From a virus (Duplodnaviria > Heunggongvirae > Uroviricota > Caudoviricetes), in IMG/VR virus record IMGVR_UViG_2740892039_000008: a stretch of 18,167 nucleotides of DNA; one strand, 5' to 3'. The position numbers and the translations under genes are program-made. Under the pieces are notes generated by a model that searched no databases, had not been told where the DNA came from, and was given only the letters and a program-made list of their open reading frames with translations. Each line of letters begins with the position of its first letter. Position 1 is the first letter of the stretch. Shown here piece by piece: positions 635 to 18,167 of the stretch.

Positions 635-664
635 TTTTATCCAGGCAGAGGCTGATGCGCAATT

Positions 665-699
665 AAACATTGAGCGGCCGTGCTGGTCGCTCAATGTTT
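665..699. repeat. Perfect 12-bp inverted repeat (AAACATTGAGCG-N11-CGCTCAATGTTT) between the convergent S and cargo genes
   Basis: Read directly from the sequence at 665-676 and 688-699. No strong U-tract on either side, so a terminator role is uncertain. Could be a hairpin terminator for the convergent transcripts or the boundary of the inserted module. Confidence 0.4.
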
Positions 700-705
700 A
701 GAGGT

Positions 706-1491
706 TTATGAGTGGTTTTTATTTGATGCTTTGTATTCTAAAACCTTCTTATTGGCGTAAAGGAATTTTGTGTATGACAGGAATATAAATAGACCTGAAA
801 TGAAATAGATTAGGGATATTATTAATAATGTTTTTCTGTGGCTGTTATTATCTTTAATCTCCTGACTTAACCATTCGGAGTCCTCCTCGTTTAGCTGTAA
901 GAGCTTATTGCAGGCGATTGCAGGAAGTGTGTCTGTTACAAAAGTGTTCTGCAGTCTCTTGCAATCGGCAATGCTAAAAGCTTTATAGAACTTATCTGTT
1001 TTATTGTCGGAGAACAAAAGAACCTTGTCATTATAAACATGGTACATCATATTTTTATATGGTATGGCTATGGCATCCTCTACTATGGCAGATTGCTCGT
1101 TGTGTATGCAACATGCGAAGATAATATAAAGAATTCCGGCCAGGACTGCACTCATTGTTTTTGTGATGCATGGCGGTTCTGTTATGTCTCCCCAGAAGCG
1201 AGTAAGGAAAAAATCCGATGTTTTTAGTTTTCCATCAATCAGCCCCTGCTGTATCATTCTCACATCTTCGATGCCTGATACATTGATTCCGTTAAGTATT
1301 TTAAATAGTTGAATGTCGCGCCACTCGCGGTCCAGTCTTTTTAATTTTTTGTCTGAATATCCAAATTTGAAATAATGTGCAATAAGCCTCATAAGGTTAC
1401 TTTTACCAAAGCTAAAAAATGCTAATACTGCAAAGACCAAAAGATACAAAACGATTAGCTCCCACACATTAGTCACATTATAGCTGACCAT
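706..1491 (-). CDS. Hypothetical cargo (moron) membrane protein, 261 aa, three predicted transmembrane helices; function unknown
   Basis: ATG at 1489-1491 (minus) preceded by AAGGAG with a 6-nt spacer. Visibly AT-rich versus flanking phage genes (GC not computed). Opposite orientation to the late operon. Hydrophobic segments at about aa 10-29, 114-131 and 224-244. Occupies the S/V variable locus (orf30 position in P2). Confidence 0.75.
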   Translation of the reverse strand: MVSYNVTNVWELIVLYLLVFAVLAFFSFGKSNLMRLIAHYFKFGYSDKKLKRLDREWRDIQLFKILNGINVSGIEDVRMIQQGLIDGKLKTSDFFLTRFWGDITEPPCITKTMSAVLAGILYIIFACCIHNEQSAIVEDAIAIPYKNMMYHVYNDKVLLFSDNKTDKFYKAFSIADCKRLQNTFVTDTLPAIACNKLLQLNEEDSEWLSQEIKDNNSHRKTLLIISLIYFISGLFIFLSYTKFLYANKKVLEYKASNKNHS

Positions 1492-1574
1492 TACGCTCTC
1501 CTTGAATGTTGTCTGGTGGTTCTACAAATGAATCCAGATAGCATAACTTTTATATATTGTGCAATCTCACATGC
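1492..1574 (+). promoter_or_regulatory. Divergent intergenic region: candidate P2 late promoter (PV-like) with an imperfect Ogr-type box, plus the promoter region of the minus-strand cargo gene
   Basis: ATGTTGTCTGGTGGTTCTACAA at 1506-1527 resembles the TGT-N12-ACA activator site of P2 late promoters, but spacing is N11 for an exact ACA. Location upstream of V fits PV. Weak, by eye. Confidence 0.3.
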
Positions 1575-2558: not shown

Positions 2559-3467
2559 ATGCCGATTATCGACCTGAACCAGCTACCCGCACCGGATGTG
2601 GTCGAGGAGCTGGACTTTGAAACCATTCTTGCCGAACGCAAGGCGACACTGATTTCCCTTTACCCGGAAGACCAGCAGGAGGCGGTCGCCCGTACCCTGA
2701 CACTGGAATCTGAGCCTCTCGTCAAACTGCTGGAGGAAAATGCTTATCGTGAGCTTATCTGGCGTCAGCGTGTGAATGAGGCCGCACGGGCGGTGATGCT
2801 GGCCTGTGCCGCCGGTAATGACCTTGATGTGATTGGTGCCAATTACAACACCACGCGCCTGATTATCACCCCGGCAGATGATTCGACCATCCCGCCGACA
2901 CCGGCAGTGATGGAATCTGACACCGATTATCGTCTGCGTATTCAGCAGGCGTTTGAAGGTTTAAGCGTCGCCGGGTCGGTGGGTGCCTATCAGTATCATG
3001 GACGCAGTGCTGACGGGCGTGTCGCGGATATCTCTGTCACCAGTCCGTCTCCGGCCTGTGTCACCATCTCTGTGCTGTCACGTGAAAATAACGGTGTCGC
3101 TTCCGAAGACCTGCTGGCGGTGGTGCGTAACGCCCTTAATGGTGAGGACGTCAGGCCGGTGGCCGACCGCGTGACCGTGCAGTCTGCCGCCATCGTTGAA
3201 TACCAGATAAACGCCACGCTTTACCTTTACCCTGGTCCCGAAAGCGAACCCATCCGCGCTGCTGCCGTGAAAAAACTGGAAGCGTACATCACGGCACAGC
3301 ACCGGCTGGGGCGCGACATCCGTCTGTCTGCCATTTATGCCGCTTTGCATGTGGAAGGCGTGCAGCGTGTCGAACTGGCTGCACCACTGGCCGACATCGT
3401 GCTCAACAATACGCAGGCGTCTTTCTGTACCGAATACCGCGTTGTGACCGGAGGCTCGGATGAGTGA
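2559..3467 (+). CDS. J: Baseplate protein J
   Basis: 302 aa, as in P2 gpJ. Follows W by 4 nt. 3' end overlaps I. Confidence 0.88.
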   Translation: MPIIDLNQLPAPDVVEELDFETILAERKATLISLYPEDQQEAVARTLTLESEPLVKLLEENAYRELIWRQRVNEAARAVMLACAAGNDLDVIGANYNTTRLIITPADDSTIPPTPAVMESDTDYRLRIQQAFEGLSVAGSVGAYQYHGRSADGRVADISVTSPSPACVTISVLSRENNGVASEDLLAVVRNALNGEDVRPVADRVTVQSAAIVEYQINATLYLYPGPESEPIRAAAVKKLEAYITAQHRLGRDIRLSAIYAALHVEGVQRVELAAPLADIVLNNTQASFCTEYRVVTGGSDE

Positions 3468-3990
3468 TTCGCGCCTGCTGCCGACCGGCTCATCACCGCT
3501 TGAGGTCGCCGCCGCAAAAGCCTGTGCGGAAATTGAAAAAACGCCGGTCAGTATTCGTGAGCTGTGGAACCCGGACACCTGCCCGGCAAATCTGCTGCCG
3601 TGGCTGGCGTGGGCGTTTTCGGTCGACAGGTGGGATGAAAAGTGGCCGGAAGCGACAAAACGCGCCGTTATCCGCGATGCCTATTTCATCCACTGTCATA
3701 AAGGCACTATCGGCGCAATCCGGCGTGTGGTGGAGCCGCTCGGCTATCTCATTAACGTAAAGGAATGGTGGGAGACAAACGACCCGCCCGGAACCTTTCG
3801 CCTTGATATCGGTGTGCTGGAAAGCGGCATCACGGAGGAGATGTATCTGGAAATGGAACGGCTGATTGCCGATGCCAAACCCGCAAGTCGCCACCTTATC
3901 GGTCTGAACATTATCCAGGACATTCCCGGCTATCTGTATACAGGCGGTGTGGTCTGTGATGGTGATGTTATTACTGTTTATCCCGGATAA
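3460..3990 (+). CDS. I: Baseplate / tail formation protein I
   Basis: 176 aa, as in P2 gpI. Overlaps the J 3' end by 8 nt (translational coupling). Confidence 0.85.
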   Translation: MSDSRLLPTGSSPLEVAAAKACAEIEKTPVSIRELWNPDTCPANLLPWLAWAFSVDRWDEKWPEATKRAVIRDAYFIHCHKGTIGAIRRVVEPLGYLINVKEWWETNDPPGTFRLDIGVLESGITEEMYLEMERLIADAKPASRHLIGLNIIQDIPGYLYTGGVVCDGDVITVYPG

Positions 3991-4000
3991 GTGAGAAACA

Positions 4001-6619
4001 ATGAGCACGAAATTTAAAACCGTTATCACTACTGCCGGAGCCGCGAAGCTGGCAGCCGCTACTGTTCCCGGCGGGAAAAAAGTAAACCTGTCTGCAATGG
4101 CTGTGGGTGACGGTAATGGCCAATTGCCGGTGCCGGATGCCGGTCAGACGAAACTGGTGCATGAAGTCTGGCGTCACGCTCTGAATAAAGTCAGTGTGGA
4201 TAACAAGAATAAAAACTATATCGTGGCTGAACTGGTTGTTCCGCCAGAAGTGGGCGGCTTCTGGATGCGTGAGCTTGGTCTGTATGATGATGCCGGAACA
4301 CTGATTGCGGTATCCAACATGGCAGAAAGCTATAAGCCAGAACTGGCTGAAGGCTCCGGACGTGCGCAGACCTGCCGCATGGTTATTATTCTCAGTAACG
4401 TGGCGTCCGTTGAGCTGAGTATTGATGCCAGCACAGTGATGGCGACGCAGGATTACGTCGATGACAAAATCGCAGAGCATGAGCAGTCCCGCCGCCATCC
4501 TGACGCCACGCTGACAGAGAAAGGTTTTACTCAGTTAAGCAGTGCAACAAACAGCACCAGTGAGTCACTGGCGGCAACGCCAAAAGCGGTCAAGGCTGCG
4601 AATGACAACGCAAATTCACGTCTGGCGAAAAATCAGAACGGTGCAGATATCCAGGATAAATCAGCTTTTCTGGACAATGTTGGCGTTACCAGCCTGACGT
4701 TTATGAAAAACAATGGCGAAATGCCGGTTGATGCTGATCTGAATACGTTTGGTCCTGTTAAGGCTTATTCAGGTATCTGGTCTAAAGCAACATCCACCAA
4801 CGCAACACTGGAGAAAAATTTCCCGGAAGATAATGCTGTCGGTGTGCTTGAGGTTTTTGCTGCCGGCAATTTTGCAGGTACGCAACGCTTTACCACAAGA
4901 GACGGCAATGTATACATGCGTAAACTCGCCAATAAGTGGAATGGCACTGATGGTCCGTGGGGCGTATGGCGTCACACTCAATCAGCGACCCGCCCTTTGA
5001 GTACGACTATAGACCTGAATACGCTTGGAGCCGCCGAGCATCTTGGTTTATGGCGTAACAGTAGCTCGGCTATAGCTTCATATGAACGCAATTATCCAGA
5101 GGAAGGCGGCTTTGCTCAGGGGACGCTTGAGATCCTCGAAGGCGGGAATTATGGAAGAACGCAACGTTATACCACTCGCCGTGGAAATATGTACGTCCGC
5201 TGCCTTGCGGCAAGCTGGGATGCATCAAATCCGCAGTGGGAACCGTGGTTAAGAGTTGGTCATCAGTCAGAGAGTCGTTATTACGACGGGGATTTGAATG
5301 ATGTGACTTCACCAGGTATTTACAGCGTTACAGGTAAAGCGACCAACGGTCCAATACTGGACGGAAACGGCGTGACAGTCCTCGGTATTCTGGAAGTGTT
5401 GAGGCGCTTTGATGGTGTTAACGTATGGCAGCGTTATACAACTGCCGGAACAGGTGCAACCCTTAAAGGTCGCACGTTTGAGCGCGTCTATACCGGCAGC
5501 TCGTGGAGCGAATGGCGGGAAGTCTACACCTCGTATTCACTTCCCCTGAATCTGGGTATCGGCGGTGCAGTGGCAAAGCTCACCAGCCTGGACTGGCAGA
5601 CCCACGACTTTGTGCCGGGCAGTCTGATAACCGTTCGGCTTGATAACATGACCAACATTCCCGACGGTATGGACTGGGGCGTCATTGATGGCAACCTGAT
5701 AAACATCGCAGTTGGTCCGAGTGATGATTCCGGTACGGGGCGCTCAATGCATGTATGGCGCAGCACTGTAAGTAAAGCGAATTACCGCTTTTTTATGGTG
5801 CGTATTTCAGGAAATCCGGGAAGCCGCACGATCACGACAAGACGTGTGCCAATTATCGACGAAGCTCAGACATGGGCGGCGAAACAGACATTCAGCGGTG
5901 GTCTTTCAGGCGAACTGTCCGGCAATGCGGCTACAGCAACAAAGCTGAAAACGGCAAGGACAATTAACGGCGTGAAATTTGACGGCTCGGCAAATATTGA
6001 AGTATTTCCGCCAGGTGTTCCGCTGCCATGGCCATCAGATACACCGCCTGCAGGCTATGCAATCATGCAGGGACAGACGTTTGATAAGGCAGCATATCCG
6101 AAACTGGCTATTGCCTATCCTTCTGGTGTTATTCCAGATATGCGCGGCTGGACAATCAAGGGCAAACCCGCCAGTGGGCGTGCCGTATTGTCACAGGAAC
6201 AGGACGGGATTAAATCGCATACTCACAGCGCCAGTGCGTCAAATACGGACTTAGGAACGAAAACGACCAGTTCATTTGATTACGGGACAAAAACAGTCAG
6301 TACGTTTAACCACGGCACAAAATCAACCAATACTTCTGGCAATCATACACATACCGTCGGTTTTGCTGTGAGCGTGCAATCAGGCGGTGCAGATTATGGT
6401 GTTCCGCGAAGTGATAAAGGTGCTACGACTACAAGTTCATCAGGCAATCATGCACATACAGTCGACATTGGAGCACATAACCATACTGTTGGTATTGGTG
6501 CACATTCACACACTGTTGCTATTGGCTCACACGGGCATTCCATTACCGTAAATGCTACTGGCAATACCGAAAACACCGTCAAAAACATCGCATTTAACTA
6601 TATTGTGAGGCTTGCATAA
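4001..6619 (+). CDS. H: Tail fibre protein H, mosaic: conserved P2-like N-terminus, three internal ~50-aa repeats, His-rich HxH C-terminal tip
   Basis: 872 aa (P2 gpH is about 669 aa by recall). N-terminus [20 protein letters not shown].. is a P2-H-type baseplate-attachment region. C-terminus carries repeated GNHTHTV / [27 protein letters not shown] motifs and a ..NYIVRLA end typical of Tfa-dependent fibres. Confidence 0.9.
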
Positions 6620-7197
6620 TGGCTTTCAGAATGAGTGCAGAAGCACAAACTATCCGCGTTTTCAATTTACTTGATGGAACCAATGAGTTTATTGGCGAAA
6701 GTGATGCATATATTCCGCCGTATACTGGCCTGCCTGCAAACAGTACAGATATTGCACCACCTGATATTCCTGCTGGTTATGCAGCCGTTTTCAATGCAGA
6801 TGAAATGAAATGGGAGTTGATGGAAGATCATCGCGGAAAGACTGTCTACGAAACGAAAACGGGAGCAGCCATTTATATTTCTGAACTTGGCGCATTACCT
6901 CCAGACGTGACAGCCATTTCCCCGGAGGGGGATTATCAGAAATGGAACGGAAATGCGTGGGTGAATGATGAGAATGCAGAGCGTGATGCACTTGTCAGAG
7001 CGGCTGAGTCTCAGAAGAAAGAGCAGATTGCATATGCAGGTGAAATCATTGCCATGCTGCAGGATGCTGTCGATTTAGATATGGCTACCGAGGAAGAAAA
7101 GTTAAGCCTGACACACTGGAAAAAATACCGTGTGCTACTTAATCGCGTTCAGCCGGAAAATGCTCCGGATATAGAATGGCCTGAAATGCCGCAATAA
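6619..7197 (+). CDS. G: Tail fibre assembly protein (chaperone), G position
   Basis: 192 aa. ATG overlaps the H stop (TAATG). C-terminal ..[27 protein letters not shown] resembles the conserved Tfa C-terminal region. Position equals P2 G. Longer than P2 gpG (175 aa by recall), consistent with a swapped H-tip/G module. Confidence 0.8.
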
Positions 7198-7258
7198 ATC
7201 GTATTAGCTCTGGTGTGAGATTACTCATCTATGGCACAGAGTAAAACCTAATCTGACT

Positions 7259-7282
7259 GTCCGCTCTGTGCTAGGAGCGGAC
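7259..7282. repeat. 8-bp inverted repeat hairpin (GTCCGCTC-N8-GAGCGGAC) downstream of G
   Basis: Read from the sequence. No following T-run, so not a canonical intrinsic terminator. Confidence 0.3.
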
Positions 7283-7495
7283 GTGATGCATATCTGTCAC
7301 CAAATTTAATGTGCCACTACAAACAGAGTATATAGTTGAATATTATAGTGCACCCCGGCCTCATGAATATAACGGTGGATTACCGCCGAACGAGTCGGAA
7401 AATAGATACTGGAAAAACTCTAAAATCGAGGCCAGTTTTTGTTGTTCTCTACAATAATAATCGGATTTTCCCATGACAAGTTTAATAGTATTTAG

Positions 7496-8605
7496 GTGCC
7501 TGAAGTGAAGTTGAAGAAGCTATTGATGAAAGTTGTGAAAGTGGTAAAGGAGCAGGTTCTAAGTACCGTTATTTCGGGAATAATAGGCATAGCGGCTACA
7601 GTAGGGCTTTTCCATTTCACTTCACAGCCAATACGATCTGCTGATGTTCGCGAAAAATTAGTTGAAATGGCTCGGGAGTGCATCCAGCAGCAGCTTGCCA
7701 CACATTTGGACTCAGTGGCGTTTGACTCAGTGGCTAGCGAGTCTCTCGATCTAAGCACCTCAAACTCCGTTGTAGTCTACGGAAGAACTGTGAGCACAAA
7801 TGGTGCCCTTAGCCGTTTCCTGATGGTCTTCGAGCCCTCTGGACAGAGTTTGATAGATAAGGTGGTTGGCAGACCTGGATTCTACGATATTGGGTATTGG
7901 GCAATCATCCCAGACGCAGGGGACGACGAGGTTGTGGCTTCTTCAGTAAACATTGAAGACCTCGACAAAGATGGTAACAAGGACATACTAGTCCGCTTAA
8001 AGTCAACTTACGCGGATGGTGTATCCAAAGGGCTTCTTATACTTAAAAAGGATATCCATGATGTATGGCATTTGATGGGGCTTCCATCAATGACAGAGAT
8101 CATGCATTCCATTGCTGCAGGTCAGCCTCCCCAGCCGGAAGGTCTTCACCTTCCACTTCCGGCAATACAATGGTTTAGTAATGACGAAAAACTCAAACCA
8201 AAGTCTGATATCAAACAATATCTTAATTGGGAAATTGACGAAGATAACTTGCAGGTCGCTGATTCCACTGGAAATCATTCTTTTTGGATGTTCAGAAACG
8301 GCACCAAGATAAAAATGTTCGAGAATGGACAAGCCGGCTACAAGCACTTTGGTGTACTGGTCAACATCAATGATGAAGAGGCGATACAGGGAAGGCATCA
8401 TCTCATGGTCAGCTTTTTCAAGATAGAGAATAATAGTTTGGTTCCTGATCCGAATTGGAACTGGGCCTATCCCATGTTCTCTATCGGATTAGAGGATAGC
8501 CAAGAAGTTGAATTAAGTGACATGCAGGAAGCGGGCTTACAAGCTCATGTTTCTGGTAGCTCCGTTTTCGGCCTGACAGAGTTTGGGAAAATGGACTCAG
8601 ATTAA
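7496..8605 (+). CDS. Hypothetical cargo protein at the G/FI (Z/fun) variable locus; 369 aa, N-terminal basic segment plus one predicted transmembrane helix, large C-terminal domain with a DxDxDG-like motif; function unknown
   Basis: GTG start at 7496 (alternative ATG at 7526 preceded by AAGAAG). Hydrophobic helix at about aa 21-41 (VLSTVISGIIGIAATVGLFHF). Motif IEDLDKDGNKD. Visibly lower GC than neighbouring tail genes. Followed by a strong terminator. Confidence 0.7.
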   Translation: MPEVKLKKLLMKVVKVVKEQVLSTVISGIIGIAATVGLFHFTSQPIRSADVREKLVEMARECIQQQLATHLDSVAFDSVASESLDLSTSNSVVVYGRTVSTNGALSRFLMVFEPSGQSLIDKVVGRPGFYDIGYWAIIPDAGDDEVVASSVNIEDLDKDGNKDILVRLKSTYADGVSKGLLILKKDIHDVWHLMGLPSMTEIMHSIAAGQPPQPEGLHLPLPAIQWFSNDEKLKPKSDIKQYLNWEIDEDNLQVADSTGNHSFWMFRNGTKIKMFENGQAGYKHFGVLVNINDEEAIQGRHHLMVSFFKIENNSLVPDPNWNWAYPMFSIGLEDSQEVELSDMQEAGLQAHVSGSSVFGLTEFGKMDSD

Positions 8606-8916
8606 TATTCGCTAACCTTACCAACGAAGAGCAGGTCACAGGTATGGCCTAATTATGTTTTCAGAGGAGTCAGGGCTCAAGAATGCCCCCAGATAAGCCG
8701 TAAATCCTGTAGCGCAAAATCGTCTCAGATGACGCAGAGATATTAAAAACGCCTCAACCTGTTCATCAATTAATTGATAGGTTGAACTGTTAGTTAAACT
8801 TTCACCAGCAGAAAGGTATGAACTTTTTCGACTCGCTCAAAGCTGGCTGTCAGAGCTGATAGCGTTTTGGCTACGTAAATTGTCAGTTGGAAACTGAGCG
8901 AGTACAAATCAGGACG

Positions 8917-8945
8917 GGCGGGCTGATTGCCCGCCTTTTCTTTAT
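8917..8945 (+). terminator. Rho-independent terminator closing the cargo transcription unit
   Basis: GGCGGGC (8917-8923), loop TGATT, GCCCGCC (8929-8935), then TTTTCTTTAT. Confidence 0.6.
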
Positions 8946-8946
8946 C

Positions 8947-9039
8947 TGTTGTTTCATCCACTGACCAGCCAGGTCAAATAGCGTCTCATGCACTGCCCAA
9001 CAGAAAATAGTTGCACCCATTAACCACGGAGTTAAACGG
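8947..9039 (+). promoter_or_regulatory. Candidate P2 late promoter PF with an Ogr-type box, upstream of FI
   Basis: TGTTGTTTCATCCACTGACCA at 8947-8967 (TGT-N12-CCA, one mismatch to TGT-N12-ACA), roughly 55 bp upstream of a plausible start site near 9010-9015. Shares the TGTTGT half-site with the box upstream of V. Confidence 0.35.
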
Positions 9040-10230
9040 ATGAGCGACTATCATCATGGCGTGCAGGTGCTGGAGATTAACGACGGCACCCGCGTCATTT
9101 CCACCGTATCCACCGCCATTGTCGGCATGGTCTGCACGGCCAGCGATGCGGATGCGGAAACCTTCCCCCTCAATAAACCGGTGCTGATTACCAATGTGCA
9201 GAGCGCGATTGCAAAGGCCGGTAAAAAAGGCACGCTGGCGGCATCGTTGCAGGCTATCGCCGACCAGTCAAAACCGGTCACCGTTGTCGTGCGTGTGGAA
9301 GACGGCACCGGCGACGACGAGGAAACGAAACTCGCGCAGACCGTTTCCAATATCATCGGCACCACCGACGAAAACGGTCAGTACACCGGACTGAAAGCCC
9401 TGCTGGCGGCGGAGTCGGTAACTGGTGTTAAACCGCGTATTCTCGGCGTGCCGGGACTGGACACCAAAGAGGTGGCTGTTGCACTGGCATCAGTCTGTCA
9501 GAAGCTGCGTGCTTTCGGGTATATCAGCGCATGGGGATGTAAGACCATTTCCGAGGTGAAAGCCTACCGCCAGAATTTCAGCCAGCGTGAGCTGATGGTC
9601 ATCTGGCCGGATTTCCTCGCATGGGATACGGTCACCAGTACCACCGCCACCGCGTATGCCACCGCCCGTGCGCTGGGTCTGCGCGCTAAAATCGACCAGG
9701 AGCAGGGCTGGCATAAAACGCTGTCCAACGTTGGGGTGAACGGTGTTACCGGCATCAGCGCCTCTGTATTCTGGGATTTGCAGGAGTCCGGCACCGATGC
9801 TGACCTGCTTAACGAGTCAGGCGTCACAACGCTGATTCGCCGCGACGGTTTCCGCTTCTGGGGTAACCGTACCTGCTCCGATGACCCGCTGTTCCTCTTT
9901 GAAAACTACACCCGCACCGCGCAGGTGCTGGCCGACACGATGGCTGAGGCGCACATGTGGGCGGTGGATAAGCCCATCACCGCAACGCTGATTCGCGACA
10001 TCGTTGACGGCATTAATGCCAAATTCCGTGAGCTGAAAACAAACGGCTATATCGTGGATGCGACCTGCTGGTTCAGCGAAGAATCCAACGATGCGGAAAC
10101 CCTCAAGGCCGGAAAACTGTATATCGACTACGACTATACCCCGGTGCCTCCTCTTGAAAACCTGACCCTGCGCCAGCGTATTACCGATAAATACCTGGCA
10201 AATCTGGTCACCTCGGTTAACAGCAATTAA
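9040..10230 (+). CDS. FI: Contractile tail sheath protein FI
   Basis: 396 aa, as in P2 gpFI. GGAG Shine-Dalgarno. Followed 12 nt later by FII. Confidence 0.9.
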   Translation: MSDYHHGVQVLEINDGTRVISTVSTAIVGMVCTASDADAETFPLNKPVLITNVQSAIAKAGKKGTLAASLQAIADQSKPVTVVVRVEDGTGDDEETKLAQTVSNIIGTTDENGQYTGLKALLAAESVTGVKPRILGVPGLDTKEVAVALASVCQKLRAFGYISAWGCKTISEVKAYRQNFSQRELMVIWPDFLAWDTVTSTTATAYATARALGLRAKIDQEQGWHKTLSNVGVNGVTGISASVFWDLQESGTDADLLNESGVTTLIRRDGFRFWGNRTCSDDPLFLFENYTRTAQVLADTMAEAHMWAVDKPITATLIRDIVDGINAKFRELKTNGYIVDATCWFSEESNDAETLKAGKLYIDYDYTPVPPLENLTLRQRITDKYLANLVTSVNSN

Positions 10231-10242
10231 GGAGCCTGACCG

Positions 10243-10761
10243 ATGGCAATGCCGCGCAAACTCAAGTTAATGAACGTCTTTCTGAACGGCTACAGCTATC
10301 AGGGCGTTGCAAAGTCCGTCACGCTGCCAAAACTGACCCGTAAGCTCGAAAACTATCGCGGTGCGGGGATGAACGGCAGCGCACCGGTAGACCTCGGCCT
10401 TGATGACGATGCGCTGTCAATGGAGTGGTCGCTCGGGGGCTTCCCGGATTCGGTTATCTGGGAGCTTTACGCCGCAACCGGTGTGGATGCCGTGCCGATT
10501 CGTTTTGCAGGCTCTTACCAGCGCGACGATACCGGCGAAACGGTGGCCGTCGAGGTGGTCATGCGTGGCCGTCAGAAAGAAATCGACACCGGCGAGGGGA
10601 AACAGGGAGAAGACACTGAGTCGAAAATCTCCGTGGTCTGCACCTATTTCCGGCTGACGATGGACGGTAAGGAGCTGGTCGAAATCGACACCATCAACAT
10701 GATTGAGAAGGTGAACGGCGTCGACCGACTGGAGCAACACCGCCGCAATATCGGCCTGTGA
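10243..10761 (+). CDS. FII: Tail tube protein FII
   Basis: 172 aa, as in P2 gpFII. AAGGAG Shine-Dalgarno 7 nt upstream. Confidence 0.9.
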   Translation: MAMPRKLKLMNVFLNGYSYQGVAKSVTLPKLTRKLENYRGAGMNGSAPVDLGLDDDALSMEWSLGGFPDSVIWELYAATGVDAVPIRFAGSYQRDDTGETVAVEVVMRGRQKEIDTGEGKQGEDTESKISVVCTYFRLTMDGKELVEIDTINMIEKVNGVDRLEQHRRNIGL

Positions 10762-10768
10762 TTTTCAT

Positions 10769-10790
10769 CCGGTCAGCCAGGCTGACCGGT
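10769..10790 (+). other. GC-rich hairpin between FII and E (CCGGTCAGC-CAGG-GCTGACCGG)
   Basis: 9-bp perfect stem read from the sequence. No U-tract. Possibly an attenuator or mRNA-stability element lowering E/T/U/D expression relative to sheath and tube. Confidence 0.3.
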
Positions 10791-10817
10791 TAACCCTGAT
10801 TCAGAAGTGAGAAAACC

Positions 10818-11093
10818 ATGAACAAAGAAAATGTCATTACCCTGGAAAATCCGGTCAAACGTGGTGAGCAGGTTATCGAAAAGGTCACGCTGATGAAACC
10901 CAATGCCGGGACGCTGCGCGGTGTCAGTCTGGCTGCGGTTGCAAACTCCGAAGTCGATGCACTGATTAAGGTGCTGCCGCGCATGACGGCACCGATGCTG
11001 ACCGAGCAGGAAGTCGCCGCGCTGGAACTGCCTGACCTTGTGGCGCTGGCCGGTAAGGTGGTCGGTTTTTTGTCGCCGAACTCGGTGCAGTGA
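10818..11093 (+). CDS. E: Tail assembly chaperone E
   Basis: 91 aa, as in P2 gpE. Contains the slippery heptamer T TTT TTG at 11066-11072 near its 3' end. Confidence 0.85.
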   Translation: MNKENVITLENPVKRGEQVIEKVTLMKPNAGTLRGVSLAAVANSEVDALIKVLPRMTAPMLTEQEVAALELPDLVALAGKVVGFLSPNSVQ

Positions 11094-11245
11094 CGTTTCC
11101 GAAAAATCTCTCGGTCGATGACCTGATGGCGGATGTGGCAGTGATATTTCACTGGCCGCCATCAGAACTGTATCCCATGAGCCTGACCGAACTCATCACA
11201 TGGCGCGAAAAGGCGCTCCGGCGAAGCGGAAACACGAATGAGTAA
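10818..11245 (+). CDS. E': Tail assembly chaperone E+E', made by programmed -1 ribosomal frameshift at 11066-11072
   Basis: Hand translation of the -1 frame from 11072 gives VAELGAVTFPKNLSVDDLMADVAVIFHWPPSELYPMSLTELITWREKALRRSGNTNE, stop TAA at 11243-11245. Total about 141-142 aa, matching P2 E+E'. Analogous to lambda G/GT. The 3' end overlaps the T start. Confidence 0.7.
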
Positions 11246-13685
11246 CAATGTAAAATTACAGGTATTGCTCAGGGCTGTTGACCAGGCATCCCGCCCGTTT
11301 AAATCCATCCGTACAGCGAGTAAGTCGCTGTCGGGGGATATCCGGGACACACAAAAATCACTGCGCGAGCTGAACGGTCACGCATCCCGTATTGAGGGAT
11401 TTCGCAAGACCAGTGCACAGCTCGCCGTGACTGGTCATGCACTTGAAAAGGCTCGGCAGGAAGCCGAAGCCCTTGCCACACAGTTTAAAAACACCGAACG
11501 TCCGACCCGTGCTCAGGCGAAAGTGCTGGAATCCGCAAAGCGTGCGGCGGAGGACTTACAGGCGAAATATAACCGCCTGACGGATTCCGTTAAACGCCAG
11601 CAGCGGGAACTGGCCGCTGTGGGAATTAATACCCGCAATCTTGCACATGATGAGCAGGGACTGAAAAACCGTATCAGTGAAACCACCGCACAGCTTAACC
11701 GTCAGCGCGACGCGCTGGCGCGTGTCAGTGCGCAACAGGCAAAACTTAACGCAGTAAAACAGCGTTATCAGTCCGGAAAGGAACTGGCCGGAAATATGGC
11801 CTCAGTGGGCGCTGCCGGTGTGGGGATTGCGGCGGCGGGAACGATGGCCGGTGTTAAGCTACTGATGCCCGGTTATGAGTTTGCGCAGAAAAACTCAGAA
11901 TTGCAGGCCGTGCTAGGTGTGGCAAAAGACTCCGCCGAAATGGCCGCACTCCGCAAGCAGGCGCGCCAGCTCGGTGACAATACTGCCGCCTCGGCGGATG
12001 ATGCAGCCGGTGCACAGATTATCATTGCGAAAGCCGGTGGGGATGTTGATGCCATTCAGGCGGCAACGCCGGTCACGCTGAATATGGCACTGGCGAACCG
12101 CCGCACGATGGAAGAAAACGCCGCCCTGCTGATGGGGATGAAATCCGCCTTTCAGCTTTCAAACGATAAGGTCGCTCATATCGGGGATGTTCTCTCCATG
12201 ACGATGAACAAAACCGCCGCCGATTTTGACGGCATGAGCGATGCGCTGACCTATGCCGCACCAGTGGCAAAAAATGCCGGTGTCAGCATTGAAGAAACCG
12301 CCGCAATGGTCGGGGCGCTGCATGATGCAAAAATCACAGGCTCAATGGCGGGGACGGGAAGCCGTGCCGTGTTAAGTCGCCTGCAGGCACCAACGGGAAA
12401 AGCATGGGATGCACTCAAAGAGCTTGGCGTGAAAACCTCAGACAGTAAAGGGAATACCCGACCAGTATTTACCATTCTGAAAGAAATGCAGGCCAGTTTT
12501 GAGAAAAACCGGCTCGGTACTGCCCAGCAGGCTGAATACATGAAAACCATTTTCGGGGAGGAGGCCAGCTCAGCCGCCGCCGTGCTGATGACTGCCGCCT
12601 CAACCGGAAAGCTGGACAAACTGACCGCTGCGTTTAAAGCCTCAGACGGGAAGACCGCAGAGCTGGTAAATATCATGCAGGACAATCTCGGCGGTGACTT
12701 TAAGGAGTTTCAGTCCGCTTATGAGGCGGTGGGGACTGACCTGTTTGACCAGCAGGAAGGCGCACTGCGTAAGCTCATGCAGACGGCCACAAAGTATGTG
12801 TTAAAACTCGACGGCTGGATACAGAAAAACAAATCACTGGCGTCAACCATTGGTCTCATTGCCGGTGGCGCACTGGCGCTTACTGGCATCATCGGTGCCA
12901 TTGGCCTCGTGGCCTGGCCGGTTATCACCGGCATCAATGCCATCATCGCGGCAGCAGGCGCAATGGGGGCAATCTTCACGACGGTTGGTAGTGCCGTTAT
13001 GACGGCCATCGGGGCGATTAGCTGGCCGGTTGTGGCCGTGGTGGCTGCCATTGTCGCCGGGGCGTTGCTTATCCGTAAATACTGGGAGCCTGTCAGCGCA
13101 TTCTTTGGCGGTGTGGTGGAAGGGCTGAAAGCGGCATTTGCTCCGGTGGGAGAACTGTTCACGCCACTTAAGCCGGTGTTTGACTGGCTGGGCGAAAAGT
13201 TACAGGCCGCGTGGCAGTGGTTTAAAAACCTGATTGCACCGGTCAAAGCCACCCAGGACACCCTGAACCGTTGCCGTGACACGGGCGTCATGTTCGGGCA
13301 GGCACTGGCTGACGCGCTGATGCTGCCGCTTAATGCGTTCAACAAATTACGCAGCGGCATTGACTGGGTACTGGAAAAGCTCGGGGTCATCAACAAAGAG
13401 TCAGACACACTTGACCAGACCGCCGCCAGAACTCATGCCGCCACGTATGGCACCGGTGGTTATATTCCGGCGACCAGCTCTTATGCAGGCTATCAGGCTT
13501 ATCAGCCGGTCACGGCACCGGCTGGCCGCTCTTATGTGGACCAGAGTAAAAACGAATATCACATCAGCCTGACGGGTGGTACTGCACCGGGGACACAGCT
13601 TGACCGCCAGTTACAGGATGCGCTCGAAAAATACGAGCGGGATAAACGTGCGCGCGCCCGTGCCAGCATGATGCATGACGGTTAA
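11238..13685 (+). CDS. T: Tail tape measure protein T
   Basis: 815 aa, as in P2 gpT. Coiled-coil-rich N-terminal half and a Gly/Ala-rich hydrophobic segment (..GLIAGGALALTGIIGAIGLVAWPV..) typical of tape measure proteins. Confidence 0.9.
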   Translation: MSNNVKLQVLLRAVDQASRPFKSIRTASKSLSGDIRDTQKSLRELNGHASRIEGFRKTSAQLAVTGHALEKARQEAEALATQFKNTERPTRAQAKVLESAKRAAEDLQAKYNRLTDSVKRQQRELAAVGINTRNLAHDEQGLKNRISETTAQLNRQRDALARVSAQQAKLNAVKQRYQSGKELAGNMASVGAAGVGIAAAGTMAGVKLLMPGYEFAQKNSELQAVLGVAKDSAEMAALRKQARQLGDNTAASADDAAGAQIIIAKAGGDVDAIQAATPVTLNMALANRRTMEENAALLMGMKSAFQLSNDKVAHIGDVLSMTMNKTAADFDGMSDALTYAAPVAKNAGVSIEETAAMVGALHDAKITGSMAGTGSRAVLSRLQAPTGKAWDALKELGVKTSDSKGNTRPVFTILKEMQASFEKNRLGTAQQAEYMKTIFGEEASSAAAVLMTAASTGKLDKLTAAFKASDGKTAELVNIMQDNLGGDFKEFQSAYEAVGTDLFDQQEGALRKLMQTATKYVLKLDGWIQKNKSLASTIGLIAGGALALTGIIGAIGLVAWPVITGINAIIAAAGAMGAIFTTVGSAVMTAIGAISWPVVAVVAAIVAGALLIRKYWEPVSAFFGGVVEGLKAAFAPVGELFTPLKPVFDWLGEKLQAAWQWFKNLIAPVKATQDTLNRCRDTGVMFGQALADALMLPLNAFNKLRSGIDWVLEKLGVINKESDTLDQTAARTHAATYGTGGYIPATSSYAGYQAYQPVTAPAGRSYVDQSKNEYHISLTGGTAPGTQLDRQLQDALEKYERDKRARARASMMHDG

Positions 13686-13699
13686 GGAGGTGACGAAAA

Positions 13700-14179
13700 A
13701 TGATGCTCGCGTTAGGTATGTTTGTTTTTATGCGCCAGACGCTGCCACACCAGACCATGCAGCGTGAATCAGATTATCGCTGGCCGTCAAATTCCCGTAT
13801 CGGTAAACGGGATGCCTACCAGTTTCTCGGCGTTGGTGAGGAAAACATGACGCTTGCCGGTGTGCTTTATCCCGAACTGACCGGCGGCAAGCTGACGATG
13901 ACCACGCTCAGACTGATGGCAGAGGAAGGCCGGGCGTGGCCGTTGCTGGATGGTACCGGCATGATTTACGGCATGTATGTCATCAGCAGGGTGAGTGAAA
14001 CAGGGAGTATTTTCTTTGCAGACGGCACACCCCGGAAAATTGATTTTACGCTGTCGCTCACCCGCGTTGATGAATCACTGGCCGCGCTTTATGGCGATAT
14101 CGGTAAACAGGCGGAGTCGCTCATCGGTAAGGCTGGCAGTATGGCGACCAGATTCACAGGTATGACGGGGGCGGGATAA
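13700..14179 (+). CDS. U: Tail protein U
   Basis: 159 aa, as in P2 gpU. AAGGAGG Shine-Dalgarno. Stop overlaps the D start (TAATG). Confidence 0.85.
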   Translation: MMLALGMFVFMRQTLPHQTMQRESDYRWPSNSRIGKRDAYQFLGVGEENMTLAGVLYPELTGGKLTMTTLRLMAEEGRAWPLLDGTGMIYGMYVISRVSETGSIFFADGTPRKIDFTLSLTRVDESLAALYGDIGKQAESLIGKAGSMATRFTGMTGAG

Positions 14180-15342
14180 TGCTGGATACGCTGACATTTG
14201 ATGCAGGCAGTACGCTGACGCCGGATTACATGCTGATGCTCGACAGCAGGGATATTACCGGCAATATCAGCGACCGTCTGATGAGTATGACCCTGACGGA
14301 TAACCGGGGCTTTGAGGCTGACCAGCTTGATATTGAACTGAACGATGCCGACGGGCAGGTCGGGCTGCCGGTTCGTGGCGCTGTCCTGACGGTGTATATC
14401 GGCTGGAAAGGTTTTGCCCTGGTATGCAAAGGGAAATTTACCGTTGATGAGGTTGAACACCGGGGCGCACCGGATGTGGTCACCATCCGCGCACGGAGTG
14501 CAGATTTTCGCGGGACGCTCAATTCCCGCCGTGAAGGCTCTTGGCATGACACCACGCTCGGTGCAATTGTTGAGGCGATAGCCACCCGTAACAGGCTGGA
14601 AGCCAGTGTCGCTCCGTCACTGGCCGGAATTAAAATTCCGCACATCGACCAGTCGCAGGAGTCTGATGCGAAATTCCTGACCCGTCTTGCAGAACGCAAC
14701 GGCGGTGAGGTCTCGGTAAAAATGGGAAAACTGTTGTTTCTCAAAGCGGGGCAGGGGGTGACGGCCAGCGGTAAAAAAATCCCGCAGGTCACCATAACCC
14801 GCAGCGACGGCGACCGCCACCATTTTGCGATTGCTGACCGTGGAGCCTATACCGGCGTAACGGCAAAGTGGCTTCACACCAAAGACCCGAAGCCGCAAAA
14901 GCAGAAGGTAAAACTGAAACGCAAAAAGAAAGAAAAACACCTGCGCGCACTGGAGCACCCGAAAGCGAAACCAGTCACGCAGAAGAAAGCGCCAAAAGCG
15001 CCGGAAGCGCGCGAAGGTGAATACATGGCCGGTGAGGCTGACAATGTTTTTGCCCTGACCACGGTATATGCCACGAAAGCGCAGGCCATGCGCGCCGCTC
15101 AGGCGAAGTGGGATAAACTGCAACGGGGCGTTGCGGAGTTCTCCATCAGCCTGGCTACCGGTCGGGCAGATATTTACACGGAAACACCGGTTAAGGTGTC
15201 AGGCTTTAAGCGCGTCATAGACGAGCAGGACTGGACAATCACTAAGGTGACACATTTTCTGAATAATAGCGGCTTCACGACGTCCTTAGAGCTTGAGGTC
15301 AGGCTTTCTGATGTGGAGTACGAAACAGAAGATGATGAGTGA
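14179..15342 (+). CDS. D: Tail protein D (late gene control D)
   Basis: 387 aa, as in P2 gpD. Includes a Lys/Pro-rich low-complexity linker. Confidence 0.85.
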   Translation: MLDTLTFDAGSTLTPDYMLMLDSRDITGNISDRLMSMTLTDNRGFEADQLDIELNDADGQVGLPVRGAVLTVYIGWKGFALVCKGKFTVDEVEHRGAPDVVTIRARSADFRGTLNSRREGSWHDTTLGAIVEAIATRNRLEASVAPSLAGIKIPHIDQSQESDAKFLTRLAERNGGEVSVKMGKLLFLKAGQGVTASGKKIPQVTITRSDGDRHHFAIADRGAYTGVTAKWLHTKDPKPQKQKVKLKRKKKEKHLRALEHPKAKPVTQKKAPKAPEAREGEYMAGEADNVFALTTVYATKAQAMRAAQAKWDKLQRGVAEFSISLATGRADIYTETPVKVSGFKRVIDEQDWTITKVTHFLNNSGFTTSLELEVRLSDVEYETEDDE

Positions 15343-15423
15343 CGTTTTTATTTTATCTATTTGTTTTATAAGGATAAATTAACTAATATGGCACCATCAA
15401 CAAAACCGGAAGAGGTGCTCGCG

Positions 15424-15642
15424 ATGTTTCATTGTCCTTTATGCCAGCATGCCGCACATGCGCGTACAAGCCGCTATATCACTGACACGACAAAAGAGCG
15501 TTATCATCAGTGCCAGAACGTGAATTGTAGTGCCACGTTCATCACTTATGAGTCGGTACAGCGATACATCGTGAAGCCGGGAGAAGTCCACGCCGTAAGG
15601 CCGCACCCGTTGCCGTCAGGGCAGCAAATTATGTGGATGTAA
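15424..15642 (+). CDS. ogr: Ogr, Cys4 zinc-finger late-gene transcriptional activator
   Basis: 72-aa product MFHCPLCQHAAHARTSRYITDTTKERYHQCQNVNCSATF.. with a CxxC-N22-CxxxxC zinc finger. GGAAGAGG Shine-Dalgarno before ATG 15424. The ORF-track start at 15361 is a TTG extension. Confidence 0.85.
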   Translation: MFHCPLCQHAAHARTSRYITDTTKERYHQCQNVNCSATFITYESVQRYIVKPGEVHAVRPHPLPSGQQIMWM

Positions 15643-15654
15643 TTACAAACAGGA

Positions 15655-15680
15655 AGCCCCTCAGTCGAGGGGCTTTTTTG
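15655..15680 (+). terminator. Rho-independent terminator after ogr
   Basis: AGCCCCTC-AGTC-GAGGGGCT followed by TTTTTTG. Confidence 0.65.
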
Positions 15681-15743
15681 TCGATGTGGTCAATGTGTGG
15701 ACGTGACCAGAAATAAATCCTTTTATTTCATTGTATTACGCGT

Positions 15744-15770
15744 AAAAAATAAGCCCGTGTAAGGGACTAT
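15744..15770. other. attR core of the P2-like prophage (phage/host junction)
   Basis: AAAAAATAAGCCCGTGTAAGGGACTAT. The first 23 nt match the P2 att core as I recall it (AAAAAATAAGCCCGTGTAAGGGAGATT); the last 4 nt differ, as expected for the bacterial side of a secondary site. Lies immediately after ogr, where attR is expected. Confidence 0.5.
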
Positions 15771-15818
15771 TTTGCAGCGGCACAGCGTTCAGACAGTTAT
15801 TTTTTTAAATGTATTAAC

Positions 15819-18167
15819 ATGCTGAGTTTATACGAAAAGATAAAGATAAGGCTGATAATTTTATTTTTATTGGCAGCATTGTCATTTATTGGTCTTTTTT
15901 TCATCATTAACTATCAACTGGTATCGGAACGCGCGGTAAAACGTGCCGATAGCCGCTTTGAACTTATTCAGAAAAACGTTGGCTATTTCTTTAAAGATAT
16001 TGAACGTTCGGCCCTGACATTAAAGGACTCACTGTATTTATTAAAAAATACAGAGGAGATTCAACGTGCCGTGATTCTGAAAATGGAAATGATGCCATTT
16101 TTAGACTCGGTGGGACTGGTACTTGATGATAATAAATATTATCTCTTTTCGCGGAGGGCGAATGATAAAATCGTTGTTTATCATCAGGAACAAGTAAATG
16201 GACCGCTTGTCGACGAGTCAGGGCGGGTTATTTTTGCCGATTTTAACCCATCGAAACGACCGTGGTCGATGGCTTCAGATGACTCTAACAACAGCTGGAA
16301 CCCGGCATACAATTGCTTTGATCGTCCGGGTAAAAAATGTATCTCTTTTACGCTACACATCAACGGCAAAGATCATGATTTGTTAGCGGTAGATAAAATT
16401 CATGTCGATTTAAACTGGCGATATCTGAACGAGTATCTTGATCACATCAGCGCTAATGATGAAGTTCTATTTTTAAAGCAAGGTCATGAGATCATTGCTA
16501 AGAATCAACTCGCTCGTGAAAAATTGATTATTTATAATAGCGAAGGTAATTATAATATTATTGATTCTGTCGATACGGAATATATTGAAAAAACATCAGC
16601 GGTGCCAAACAACGCATTATTCGAAATCTATTTTTATTATCCTGGTGGTAATTTATTGAACGCATCAGATAAACTTTTTTATCTGCCGTTTGCTTTCATT
16701 ATTATCGTATTGCTGGTGGTTTATTTAATGACCACTCGAGTTTTCCGTCGTCAATTTTCTGAAATGACAGATTTGGTCAATACGCTGGCGTTTTTGCCTG
16801 ACTCTACGGATCAAATCGAGGCCCTGAAGATTCGTGAAGGCGATGCGAAAGAGATTATCAGCATCAAAAATTCGATCGCGGAAATGAAAGATGCTGAAAT
16901 TGAACGGGCAAATAAATTGCTCTCGCTGATCTCTTACGATCAGGAAAGCGGTTTTATTAAAAATATGGCGATTATTGAGTCCAACAATAATCAGTATCTG
17001 GCTGTGGGGATCATCAAACTGTGTGGTCTGGAAGCTGTGGAAGCGGTGTTTGGTGTTGATGAACGCAATAAAATCGTCAGGAAATTGTGTCAGCGAATTG
17101 CCGAGAAATATGCGCAATGCTGCGATATCGTGACATTTAATGCCGATCTCTATTTACTCCTGTGCCGGGAAAATGTACAGACGTTTACCCGTAAGATAGC
17201 GACGGTAAACGATTTTGACAGCAGTTTTGGCTACCGCAATCTGCGCATCCATAAGTCTGCTATTTGTGAACCTTTGCAGGGGGAAAACGCCTGGAGTTAC
17301 GCAGAAAAGCTGAAACTGGCGATTTCCAGTATCCGCAACCATATGTTCTCAGAGTTTATTTTCTGTGATGATGCGAAACTCAACGAAATAGAAGAGAATA
17401 TCTGGATTGCGCGTAATATTCGCCATGCAATGGAAATTGGCGAACTATTCCTGGTCTATCAACCGATTGTTGATATTAACACCCGCACCATTTTGGGCGC
17501 GGAGGCGTTGTGCCGTTGGGTGTCTGCGGAGCGGGGGATTATTTCACCGCTGAAGTTCATTACCATTGCTGAAGATATCGGGTTTATCAATGAGCTGGGC
17601 TATCAAATTATTAAAACCGCGATGGGTGAATTCAGACATTTTAGTCAGCGTGCGTCGCTGAAGGATGATTTCTTACTGCATATTAATGTTTCGCCCTGGC
17701 AGTTAAACGAACCACACTTTCATGAGCGTTTTACTACCATCATGAAAGAAAATGGCCTGAAGGCGAACAGCCTTTGTGTTGAGATCACCGAAACCGTGAT
17801 CGAGCGAATTAATGAACATTTCTATCTCAATATTGAACAACTGCGTAAACAAGGGGTACGGGTATCGATTGATGACTTTGGCACCGGTTTGTCAAACCTG
17901 AAACGTTTTTATGAAATTAATCCAGACAGTATAAAGGTGGATTCGCAATTTACCGGCGATATTTTCGGTACTGCGGGAAAAATTGTGCGCATTATTTTCG
18001 ATCTGGCACGCTATAACCGGATCCCGGTGATTGCGGAAGGCGTAGAGAGCGAAGACGTTGCGCGTGAATTAATCAAATTAGGATGTGTTCAGGCTCAGGG
18101 GTATCTGTACCAGAAACCCATGCCATTCTCCGCCTGGGATAAAAGTGGAAAATTAGTAAAAGAGTAG
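15819..18167 (+). CDS. pdeI: Host membrane-bound c-di-GMP phosphodiesterase (two TM helices, periplasmic domain, degenerate GGDEF-like region, C-terminal EAL domain); probably PdeI (YliE)
   Basis: 782 aa, the length I recall for E. coli PdeI/YliE. TM helices at about aa 10-30 and 285-305. EAL signature GAEALCRW and DDFGTG motif in the C-terminal domain. Lower-GC, host-like codon usage. Gene symbol from recall, not a search. Confidence 0.6.
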   Translation: MLSLYEKIKIRLIILFLLAALSFIGLFFIINYQLVSERAVKRADSRFELIQKNVGYFFKDIERSALTLKDSLYLLKNTEEIQRAVILKMEMMPFLDSVGLVLDDNKYYLFSRRANDKIVVYHQEQVNGPLVDESGRVIFADFNPSKRPWSMASDDSNNSWNPAYNCFDRPGKKCISFTLHINGKDHDLLAVDKIHVDLNWRYLNEYLDHISANDEVLFLKQGHEIIAKNQLAREKLIIYNSEGNYNIIDSVDTEYIEKTSAVPNNALFEIYFYYPGGNLLNASDKLFYLPFAFIIIVLLVVYLMTTRVFRRQFSEMTDLVNTLAFLPDSTDQIEALKIREGDAKEIISIKNSIAEMKDAEIERANKLLSLISYDQESGFIKNMAIIESNNNQYLAVGIIKLCGLEAVEAVFGVDERNKIVRKLCQRIAEKYAQCCDIVTFNADLYLLLCRENVQTFTRKIATVNDFDSSFGYRNLRIHKSAICEPLQGENAWSYAEKLKLAISSIRNHMFSEFIFCDDAKLNEIEENIWIARNIRHAMEIGELFLVYQPIVDINTRTILGAEALCRWVSAERGIISPLKFITIAEDIGFINELGYQIIKTAMGEFRHFSQRASLKDDFLLHINVSPWQLNEPHFHERFTTIMKENGLKANSLCVEITETVIERINEHFYLNIEQLRKQGVRVSIDDFGTGLSNLKRFYEINPDSIKVDSQFTGDIFGTAGKIVRIIFDLARYNRIPVIAEGVESEDVARELIKLGCVQAQGYLYQKPMPFSAWDKSGKLVKE

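Follow-up and report, generated by a model that had tools for sequence, protein, structure and literature searches.

In the genome record of phage P2 (AF063097), the attachment region is annotated in a fixed order. The ogr/F-operon terminator is followed by the Int 'P arm', an IHF site, the 27-nt attP core (24356-24382), the Cox sites, the P' arm and int. The primary host site for P2-type phages, locI, lies between yegQ (trhP) and yegR, and K-12 carries an ogrK remnant there. Full prophages at locI retain 27 of the 27 core bases, and all four further matches that were sampled (4/4) also lay at yegQ. In our survey sample of 5426 complete E. coli genomes, a P2-type attR at locI (yegQ) occurs in about 1150-1200, with the locI attR present, and the site thus occupied, in 1195 genomes and the P2 arm-plus-core type present in 1141.

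P2 reportedly also uses secondary sites. Three of these, locII, locIII and H, are said to have been described by Barreiro and Haggard-Ljungquist in 1992, with partial matches to the 27-nt core, low-frequency use and hybrid cores at attL and attR. The core matches are reportedly 20/27 for locII and 17/27 for locIII. Secondary att sites of phage lambda are likewise used at low frequency and show partial core similarity, and identity in the overlap guides the crossover; the lambda integrase and core sequence are not those of P2. Among P2-like integrases, the arm-binding domain is conserved while the core-binding domain is variable (PMC3448106).

Here we analysed a stretch of 18,167 nucleotides (the window; IMG/VR record IMGVR_UViG_2740892039_000008), in which a prophage adjoins the host gene pdeI. 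A P2-type prophage-host junction had been predicted at this point. The arm elements in P2 order and spacing, a hybrid core and the pdeI flank bear this out (Table 1). With the P arm next to ogr and int on the P' side, the junction is an attR (P-O-B'). We consider it highly probable that this is the attR of a P2-type (Peduovirus) prophage that arose by Int/IHF integration at a rare secondary attB in the gsiD-pdeI spacer, and not at locI. The feature is of a known kind, a P2-type attR, at an apparently uncatalogued place. In the literature collection searched, no paper named gsiD, pdeI or yliE as a place where P2-like prophages integrate, and nothing relevant on locII or locIII was retrieved.

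Table 1. Features on the two sides of the prophage-host junction, in window coordinates
Feature	Position	Strand	Evidence
ogr, late-gene activator, last phage gene before the junction	15424..15642	+	Pfam Ogr_Delta E = 2e-21; aligns with P2 ogr 24036-24254
Intrinsic terminator of the ogr/F operon	15653..15679	+	9-bp GC-rich stem, 4-nt loop, T run
P-arm site for the Int N-terminal domain	15681..15708	+	28/28 identity to P2 'Int, P arm' protein_bind feature 24293-24320
IHF region (predicted)	15712..15745	+	corresponds to P2 'IHF' feature 24324-24357
Hybrid att core, attR P-O-B'	15744..15770	+	15744-15766 phage, 15767-15770 (CTAT) host; attP/attB/attL/attR alignment
Retained native pdeI leader, 52 nt	15767..15818	+	AT-rich; identical to AVS0750 empty site
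pdeI (yliE), intact, 782 aa, CHASE9 and EAL membrane protein	15819..18167	+	Pfam CHASE9 E = 6e-63, EAL E = 3e-69; RefSeq annotation of matches

The phage side of the junction is that of P2. The window aligns with AF063097 with zero indels between the ogr stop codon (15640-15642) and the core, and the P2 annotations therefore transfer directly. The order of ogr, terminator, Int arm repeats, IHF site and core is the same as in P2 attP and in attR at locI. An inverted-repeat search places the terminator hairpin, AAGCCCCTC/GAGGGGCTT, at 15654-15675, with the T run after it. The hairpin folds at -22.9 kcal/mol (z = -5.3), and 15653-15676 is the position homologous to the terminator annotated in the P2 record (24265-24288). 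An Rfam search of the junction region gave sub-threshold matches only, and these were driven by the terminator hairpin.

Past the terminator comes the phage arm, predicted at about 65 bp and measured at 64 bp, in which the Int arm site and the IHF site fall where the P2 record places them. The Int P-arm site contains two direct repeats, TGTGGTCA (15685-15692) and TGTGGACG (15696-15703), which are 11 bp, or one helical turn, apart. Both agree with the P2-type arm consensus, tgTGGaCa (PMC3448106). The IHF region is identical to P2 at 29 of 34 positions. Its five substitutions all fall in the 13 nt preceding the core, and this variant is found with 100% identity in prophages resident at locI.

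The original prediction had also proposed two symmetric motifs of the arm as Int and IHF sites. The first is the 6-bp inverted repeat TGGTCA (15687-15692) and TGACCA (15704-15709), with 11 nt between the halves. The second is the A/T palindrome AAATAAATCCTTTTATTT at 15711-15728, which extends to 8-nt arms (15710-15717 and 15722-15729). Their positions hold up, and the inverted repeat lies mostly inside the Int P-arm site and the palindrome inside the IHF region. The inverted repeat as a functional Int element does not. A repeat of this size is near chance level (roughly one per 176 bp with spacings up to 20, by our own estimate), and we reject it as a protein site; the recognised elements are instead the direct repeats.

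The phage itself is unremarkable. Over 15300-15766, the window shares 90-98% identity with 76 P2-like phage records, and phage homology ends at 15766 in P2 itself and in the closest relatives. Several genomes carry at locI a prophage whose gpD is identical and which equals the window in all 124 nt between the ogr stop and core position 23. The window phage is thus a P2 relative of the ordinary locI type that integrated at another place. In exact-protein look-ups, the genomic contexts for this gpD were locI or pflB only, and those for this PdeI were empty sites only.

The pflB context represents a different specificity. In three retrieved loci (around 7540-7580), P2-like prophages lie next to pflB-focA-ycaO with a swapped core specificity on a conserved arm. 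These prophages share their late genes, including the identical gpD, the terminator and the Int arm repeats with the phage in the window, whereas their core, AATGTCA-N8-TGACATT, and their host site, next to pflB, are different. A different core on the same arm fits the conserved-arm, variable-core division of the integrase domains (PMC3448106).

The deposited P2 core is AAAAAATAAGCCCGTGTAAGGGAGATT. The window core is identical to it at 23 of 27 positions, which confirms the expectation that its first 23 nt are those of P2 while its last four, CTAT, differ; the latter are host DNA. The 23-mer AAAAAATAAGCCCGTGTAAGGGA at 15744-15766 is the sole match in the window even when three mismatches are allowed, and 0 of 200 shuffles matched. 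This core differs from attR at locI in two respects. Its partner in the host is the gsiD-pdeI spacer, which matches at 15-16 positions where locI matches at 27, and its last four bases come from the host.

The host partner was defined at unoccupied loci, a comparison the prediction had called for. At the empty site of K-12 and AVS0750, gsiD lies upstream of pdeI across a spacer of 176-177 bp. Both loci define attB, and they show that integration changes the region upstream of pdeI. The attB, GGTTAAAAAGCCGCAGCAAGGGAC(T/A)AT, matches the P2 core at 15 of 27 positions in AVS0750 (GGTTAAAAAGCCGCAGCAAGGGACTAT) and at 16 of 27 in K-12 (...CAAT). These counts differ from the 20/27 and 17/27 given above for locII and locIII. 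The agreement clusters in AAGCC and in AAGGGA, the latter being the sole perfect 6-nt block. This hexamer (15761-15766) is common to the phage and host cores, and the switch from phage to host falls there. In 5420 of the 5426 complete genomes, homology to the host side starts at 15761. Because the window follows the AVS0750 allele from AAGGGA onward, phage sequence gives way to host sequence somewhere from core position 17 to 24. A full core repeat is not expected at the other prophage end, since the secondary attB matches the core at so few positions and only AAGGGA is perfectly shared.

These comparisons dispose of the simplest alternative, that this is the normal primary P2 site with four core bases altered by strain variation: the first 23 core bases are indeed those of P2 and the arm is 100% identical to locI prophages, but locI lies between yegQ and yegR with a 27/27 core, the flank here is pdeI, the unoccupied site reaches 15-16/27 only and the pdeI junction is found in 1 of 5426 genomes, so that the empty-site comparison refutes a reading to which we give practically no credence.

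The same junction exists in a second lysogen. In the closed genome of strain 203740 (NZ_CP025913.1), the order is gsiD, attL, int, C, cox ... ogr, attR, pdeI. Its attL consists of the host-left sequence, AAGGGA and GATTtagggtg, the last of which is identical to the P2 P' arm, and its attR is the reciprocal product of this attL. The phage is not that of the window. The two are 93-97% identical in shared parts, and window 637-1574 and 4279-8856 have no homologous DNA in the 203740 prophage, which carries an IS element in its tail-fibre gene and has an arm that differs from the window arm at several bases. The host flank is a K-12-type allele, not the AVS0750 type. Since phage and host allele both differ, the pdeI site has been used at least twice, with the same switch interval. 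Two separate events that share a switch interval indicate that the site is a real and reusable secondary attB, and argue against misassembly or illegitimate recombination.

An assembly chimera, or homologous recombination between two P2-like prophages in place of integration, is accordingly a very remote prospect. In its favor, the source contig measures only 18.4 kb and its end falls within the prophage. Against it, the junction recurs in the closed 203740 genome, where the gsiD and pdeI flanks are contiguous and the reciprocal attL is present, and the switch sits exactly at the only block shared with attB. In addition, a further IMG/VR record, IMGVR_UViG_2617271087_000015, reproduces window 4419-18167 except for one 1-nt indel. 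The indel is a G of window 10009 that is missing from FI, the sheath gene, in the contig, either a frameshift or a sequencing error. The window and this near-identical contig both end inside the prophage, and the reciprocal attL comes from strain 203740 only.

Strain 203740 also bears on why a secondary site would be chosen. Its locI is empty and carries a perfect 27-nt core (14547-14573 of the retrieved locus). The explanation that the secondary site is used because locI is occupied is therefore rejected for this strain. The prophage entered, or remained at, the secondary site with the preferred site unoccupied.

Two further ORFs of the window deserve mention. One, a cargo ORF of 359 aa (7526-8605, +), lies between the tail-fibre assembly gene G and the sheath gene FI and matches phrog_15038 (unknown function), with no match in Pfam, PADLOC, NCBIfam or PDB sequences. 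It is absent from the 203740 prophage and present in locI-resident relatives. Its position between G and FI is the Z/fun position of P2, a known anti-phage hotspot. The other ORF, of 261 aa (706-1491, -), lies between the tail-completion gene and the baseplate gene V and matches phrog_2407 (unknown function), with no match in Pfam, PADLOC or NCBIfam. The 203740 prophage contains no DNA homologous to this region, which is the position of P2 orf30.

Use of the pdeI site is rare. The gsiD-pdeI spacer is uninterrupted in 5402 of the 5426 genomes, and the P2 arm is joined to pdeI in a single one, strain 203740. Occupancy is thus about 1/5426 here, as against about 1195/5426 at locI. A PdeI protein identical to that of the window is very common, with gsiD upstream in 101 of 101 contigs examined. 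The exact attR and attL junctions were absent from the GTDB species representatives and the JGI metagenomes, and in IMG/VR one contig matched, the near-identical record described above.

Where the strands are exchanged can be narrowed by the two attR sequences and one attL from which the crossover position is inferred. In the simplest model, both strand exchanges would occur within or at the edges of AAGGGA. A different model would yield the same attR with exchanges that flank GTGTAA, between CCC and GGG arms in inverted orientation. Phage and host (CAGCAA) would then differ within the overlap, and the junctions would represent one of two heteroduplex segregants. Several features are consistent with this. 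The recombinant core (15746-15773) forms an 11-nt imperfect inverted repeat, AAAATAAGCCC/GGGACTATTTT, with 9 of 11 positions paired around GTGTAA, which would fit an overlap there. The host B and B' arms retain AAGCC and GGGA while the center is variable. In the related pflB-type core, the halves of a perfect 7-bp inverted repeat enclose an 8-nt spacer at the corresponding place.

Exchange around GTGTAA nevertheless requires recombination over mismatches at 3 of 6 overlap positions. For tyrosine recombinases of the lambda family, overlap mismatches strongly inhibit strand swapping. The phage version is present in both independent attR, which by our reckoning has a chance of about one in four under this model, and the switch coincides exactly with AAGGGA, the only perfect 6-nt block. 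We therefore regard exchange around GTGTAA as unlikely. From the aligned sequences, we infer that exchange in AAGGGA carries the larger part of the weight and exchange around GTGTAA a minor part.

The core has two further properties. The host B' arm mirrors the left core arm of the phage (9/11) better than P2's own right arm does (5/11, our own count). On the minus strand, 15752-15768 gives a hairpin resembling a terminator, with a T run after it (AGTCCCTTACACGGGCT TATTTTTTAC). In attP this hairpin would face the end of the int transcript, and integration at the secondary site alters its stem at attL.

With the exchange placed in AAGGGA, the events at this locus would be as follows. A P2-type phage would integrate by Int/IHF site-specific recombination at the secondary attB, 53-58 bp upstream of pdeI. 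The gsiD-side attL of the prophage in the window is then expected as GCCGCAGCAAGGGAGATTTAGGG, adjoining a P2-type int, with gsiD about 30 kb upstream; read from gsiD, the attL sequence is expected to follow as ...GGTTAAAAAGCCGCAGCAAGGGAGATTTAGGGTG... The displaced spacer bases would sit at this attL, about 30 kb away and beyond the prophage, pointing into the 3' end of int. In the attL of 203740 (7309-7460 of the retrieved locus), one displaced promoter candidate, TTGTAA-N16-TAGAAT, is oriented through the hybrid core towards the Cox-binding region and, in antisense, the int 3' end. It could influence int expression or excision.

On the pdeI side, the start codon lies 48 nt past the 27-nt core, and the 25 bases before this ATG contain no purine-rich Shine-Dalgarno, both as originally predicted. 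The leader is identical in prophage-free strains, which makes the lack of a Shine-Dalgarno native and not phage-caused. We therefore reject it as a consequence of integration. The native bases left before the ATG are 52, plus the shared AAGGGA (52-58). Integration displaced 118-124 of the 176 spacer bases, about two thirds of the pdeI upstream region. The originally proposed replacement of most of the native promoter region is borne out for the upstream DNA; for the promoter itself it is a plausible reading of consensus matches and a 249-bp fragment.

The consensus matches come from promoter scans. The empty site contains three sigma-70-like matches of at least 8/12: TTGTAA-N16-TAGAAT, whose -10 ends 86 nt before the ATG, TTGAAA-N19-AATTAT and TTAAAA-N16-TATTTT. 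All three lie upstream of the crossover or straddle it; as candidates they match the consensus at 8-9 of 12 positions, and their number is not above that in shuffled controls. No terminator is predicted between gsiD and pdeI at the empty site, and read-through from gsiABCD may therefore normally contribute to pdeI transcription. The fragment comes from a published construct in which 249 bp upstream of the ATG, used as the 'native promoter', suffice to drive PdeI expression (PMC11651652). When the published primer is mapped, about 190 of these 249 bases are displaced in the lysogen.

In the lysogen, pdeI, and probably dgcI as well (7 bp downstream), would keep only the 52-58 bp of native leader. 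The gene would face a strong phage terminator instead of the sigma-70-like candidates and gsiABCD read-through. With the promoter candidates displaced and a strong terminator upstream, pdeI-dgcI transcription is expected to fall, or to depend on terminator leakage. Displacement of the promoter, and with it a rewiring of pdeI by integration, is plausible from the arrangement of the locus.

It is also possible, if somewhat doubtful, that the junction is real and has no effect on pdeI, either because the promoter lies within the retained 52 nt or because the gene is essentially silent either way. A literature search for a mapped pdeI transcription start site found nothing usable, the promoter candidates are as weak as described above, and pdeI is annotated as a pseudogene in some strains, such as AVS0750, which suggests relaxed selection. 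On the other side, the occupied arrangement, including the retained 52 nt, has no promoter match of at least 8/12, and the only fragment shown to drive expression has lost most of its length. The ogr terminator now stands about 140 bp upstream of the ATG. The AVS0750 pdeI (2559-4907 of the retrieved locus) is a RefSeq pseudogene because of an internal stop, and its first 640 bp are identical to the intact gene of the window.

Other work gives some context for pdeI. PdeI overexpression blocks phage N4 (PMC7553319). In a single-cell study, PdeI raised c-di-GMP and marked persister-prone biofilm cells (PMC11651652), and in light of that report the label 'phosphodiesterase' is debated. Neither the N4 study nor the single-cell study bears on the prophage. 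According to a preprint, one pdeI missense mutation recurs among de novo lysogens of a P2-like phage from E. coli HS. Deletion of pdeI failed to reproduce the authors' phenotype, and the text examined does not place that prophage at pdeI.

The broadest reading of the locus is that the P2 integrase has in the gsiD-pdeI spacer a genuine secondary attB, reusable and as yet uncatalogued, and that use of this site silences or re-times the pdeI-dgcI module, with a heritable change in biofilm formation, persistence or phage susceptibility. Taken as a whole, we think this improbable. If true, it would be a case of lysogenic conversion through promoter displacement and not through cargo genes. The junction reveals no new mechanism, and its main value is as a clean, well-documented example of secondary-site use by the P2 integrase. 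With matches at 15-16 of 27 positions, the site gives a measure of the low core identity that this integrase can accept. Two different P2-like phages in two host backgrounds share the same 6-nt switch block, which narrows the position of strand exchange by P2 integrase. For the host, the lysogen offers a natural 'promoter-cut' allele of pdeI-dgcI, and with it a handle on the role of a poorly understood c-di-GMP module.
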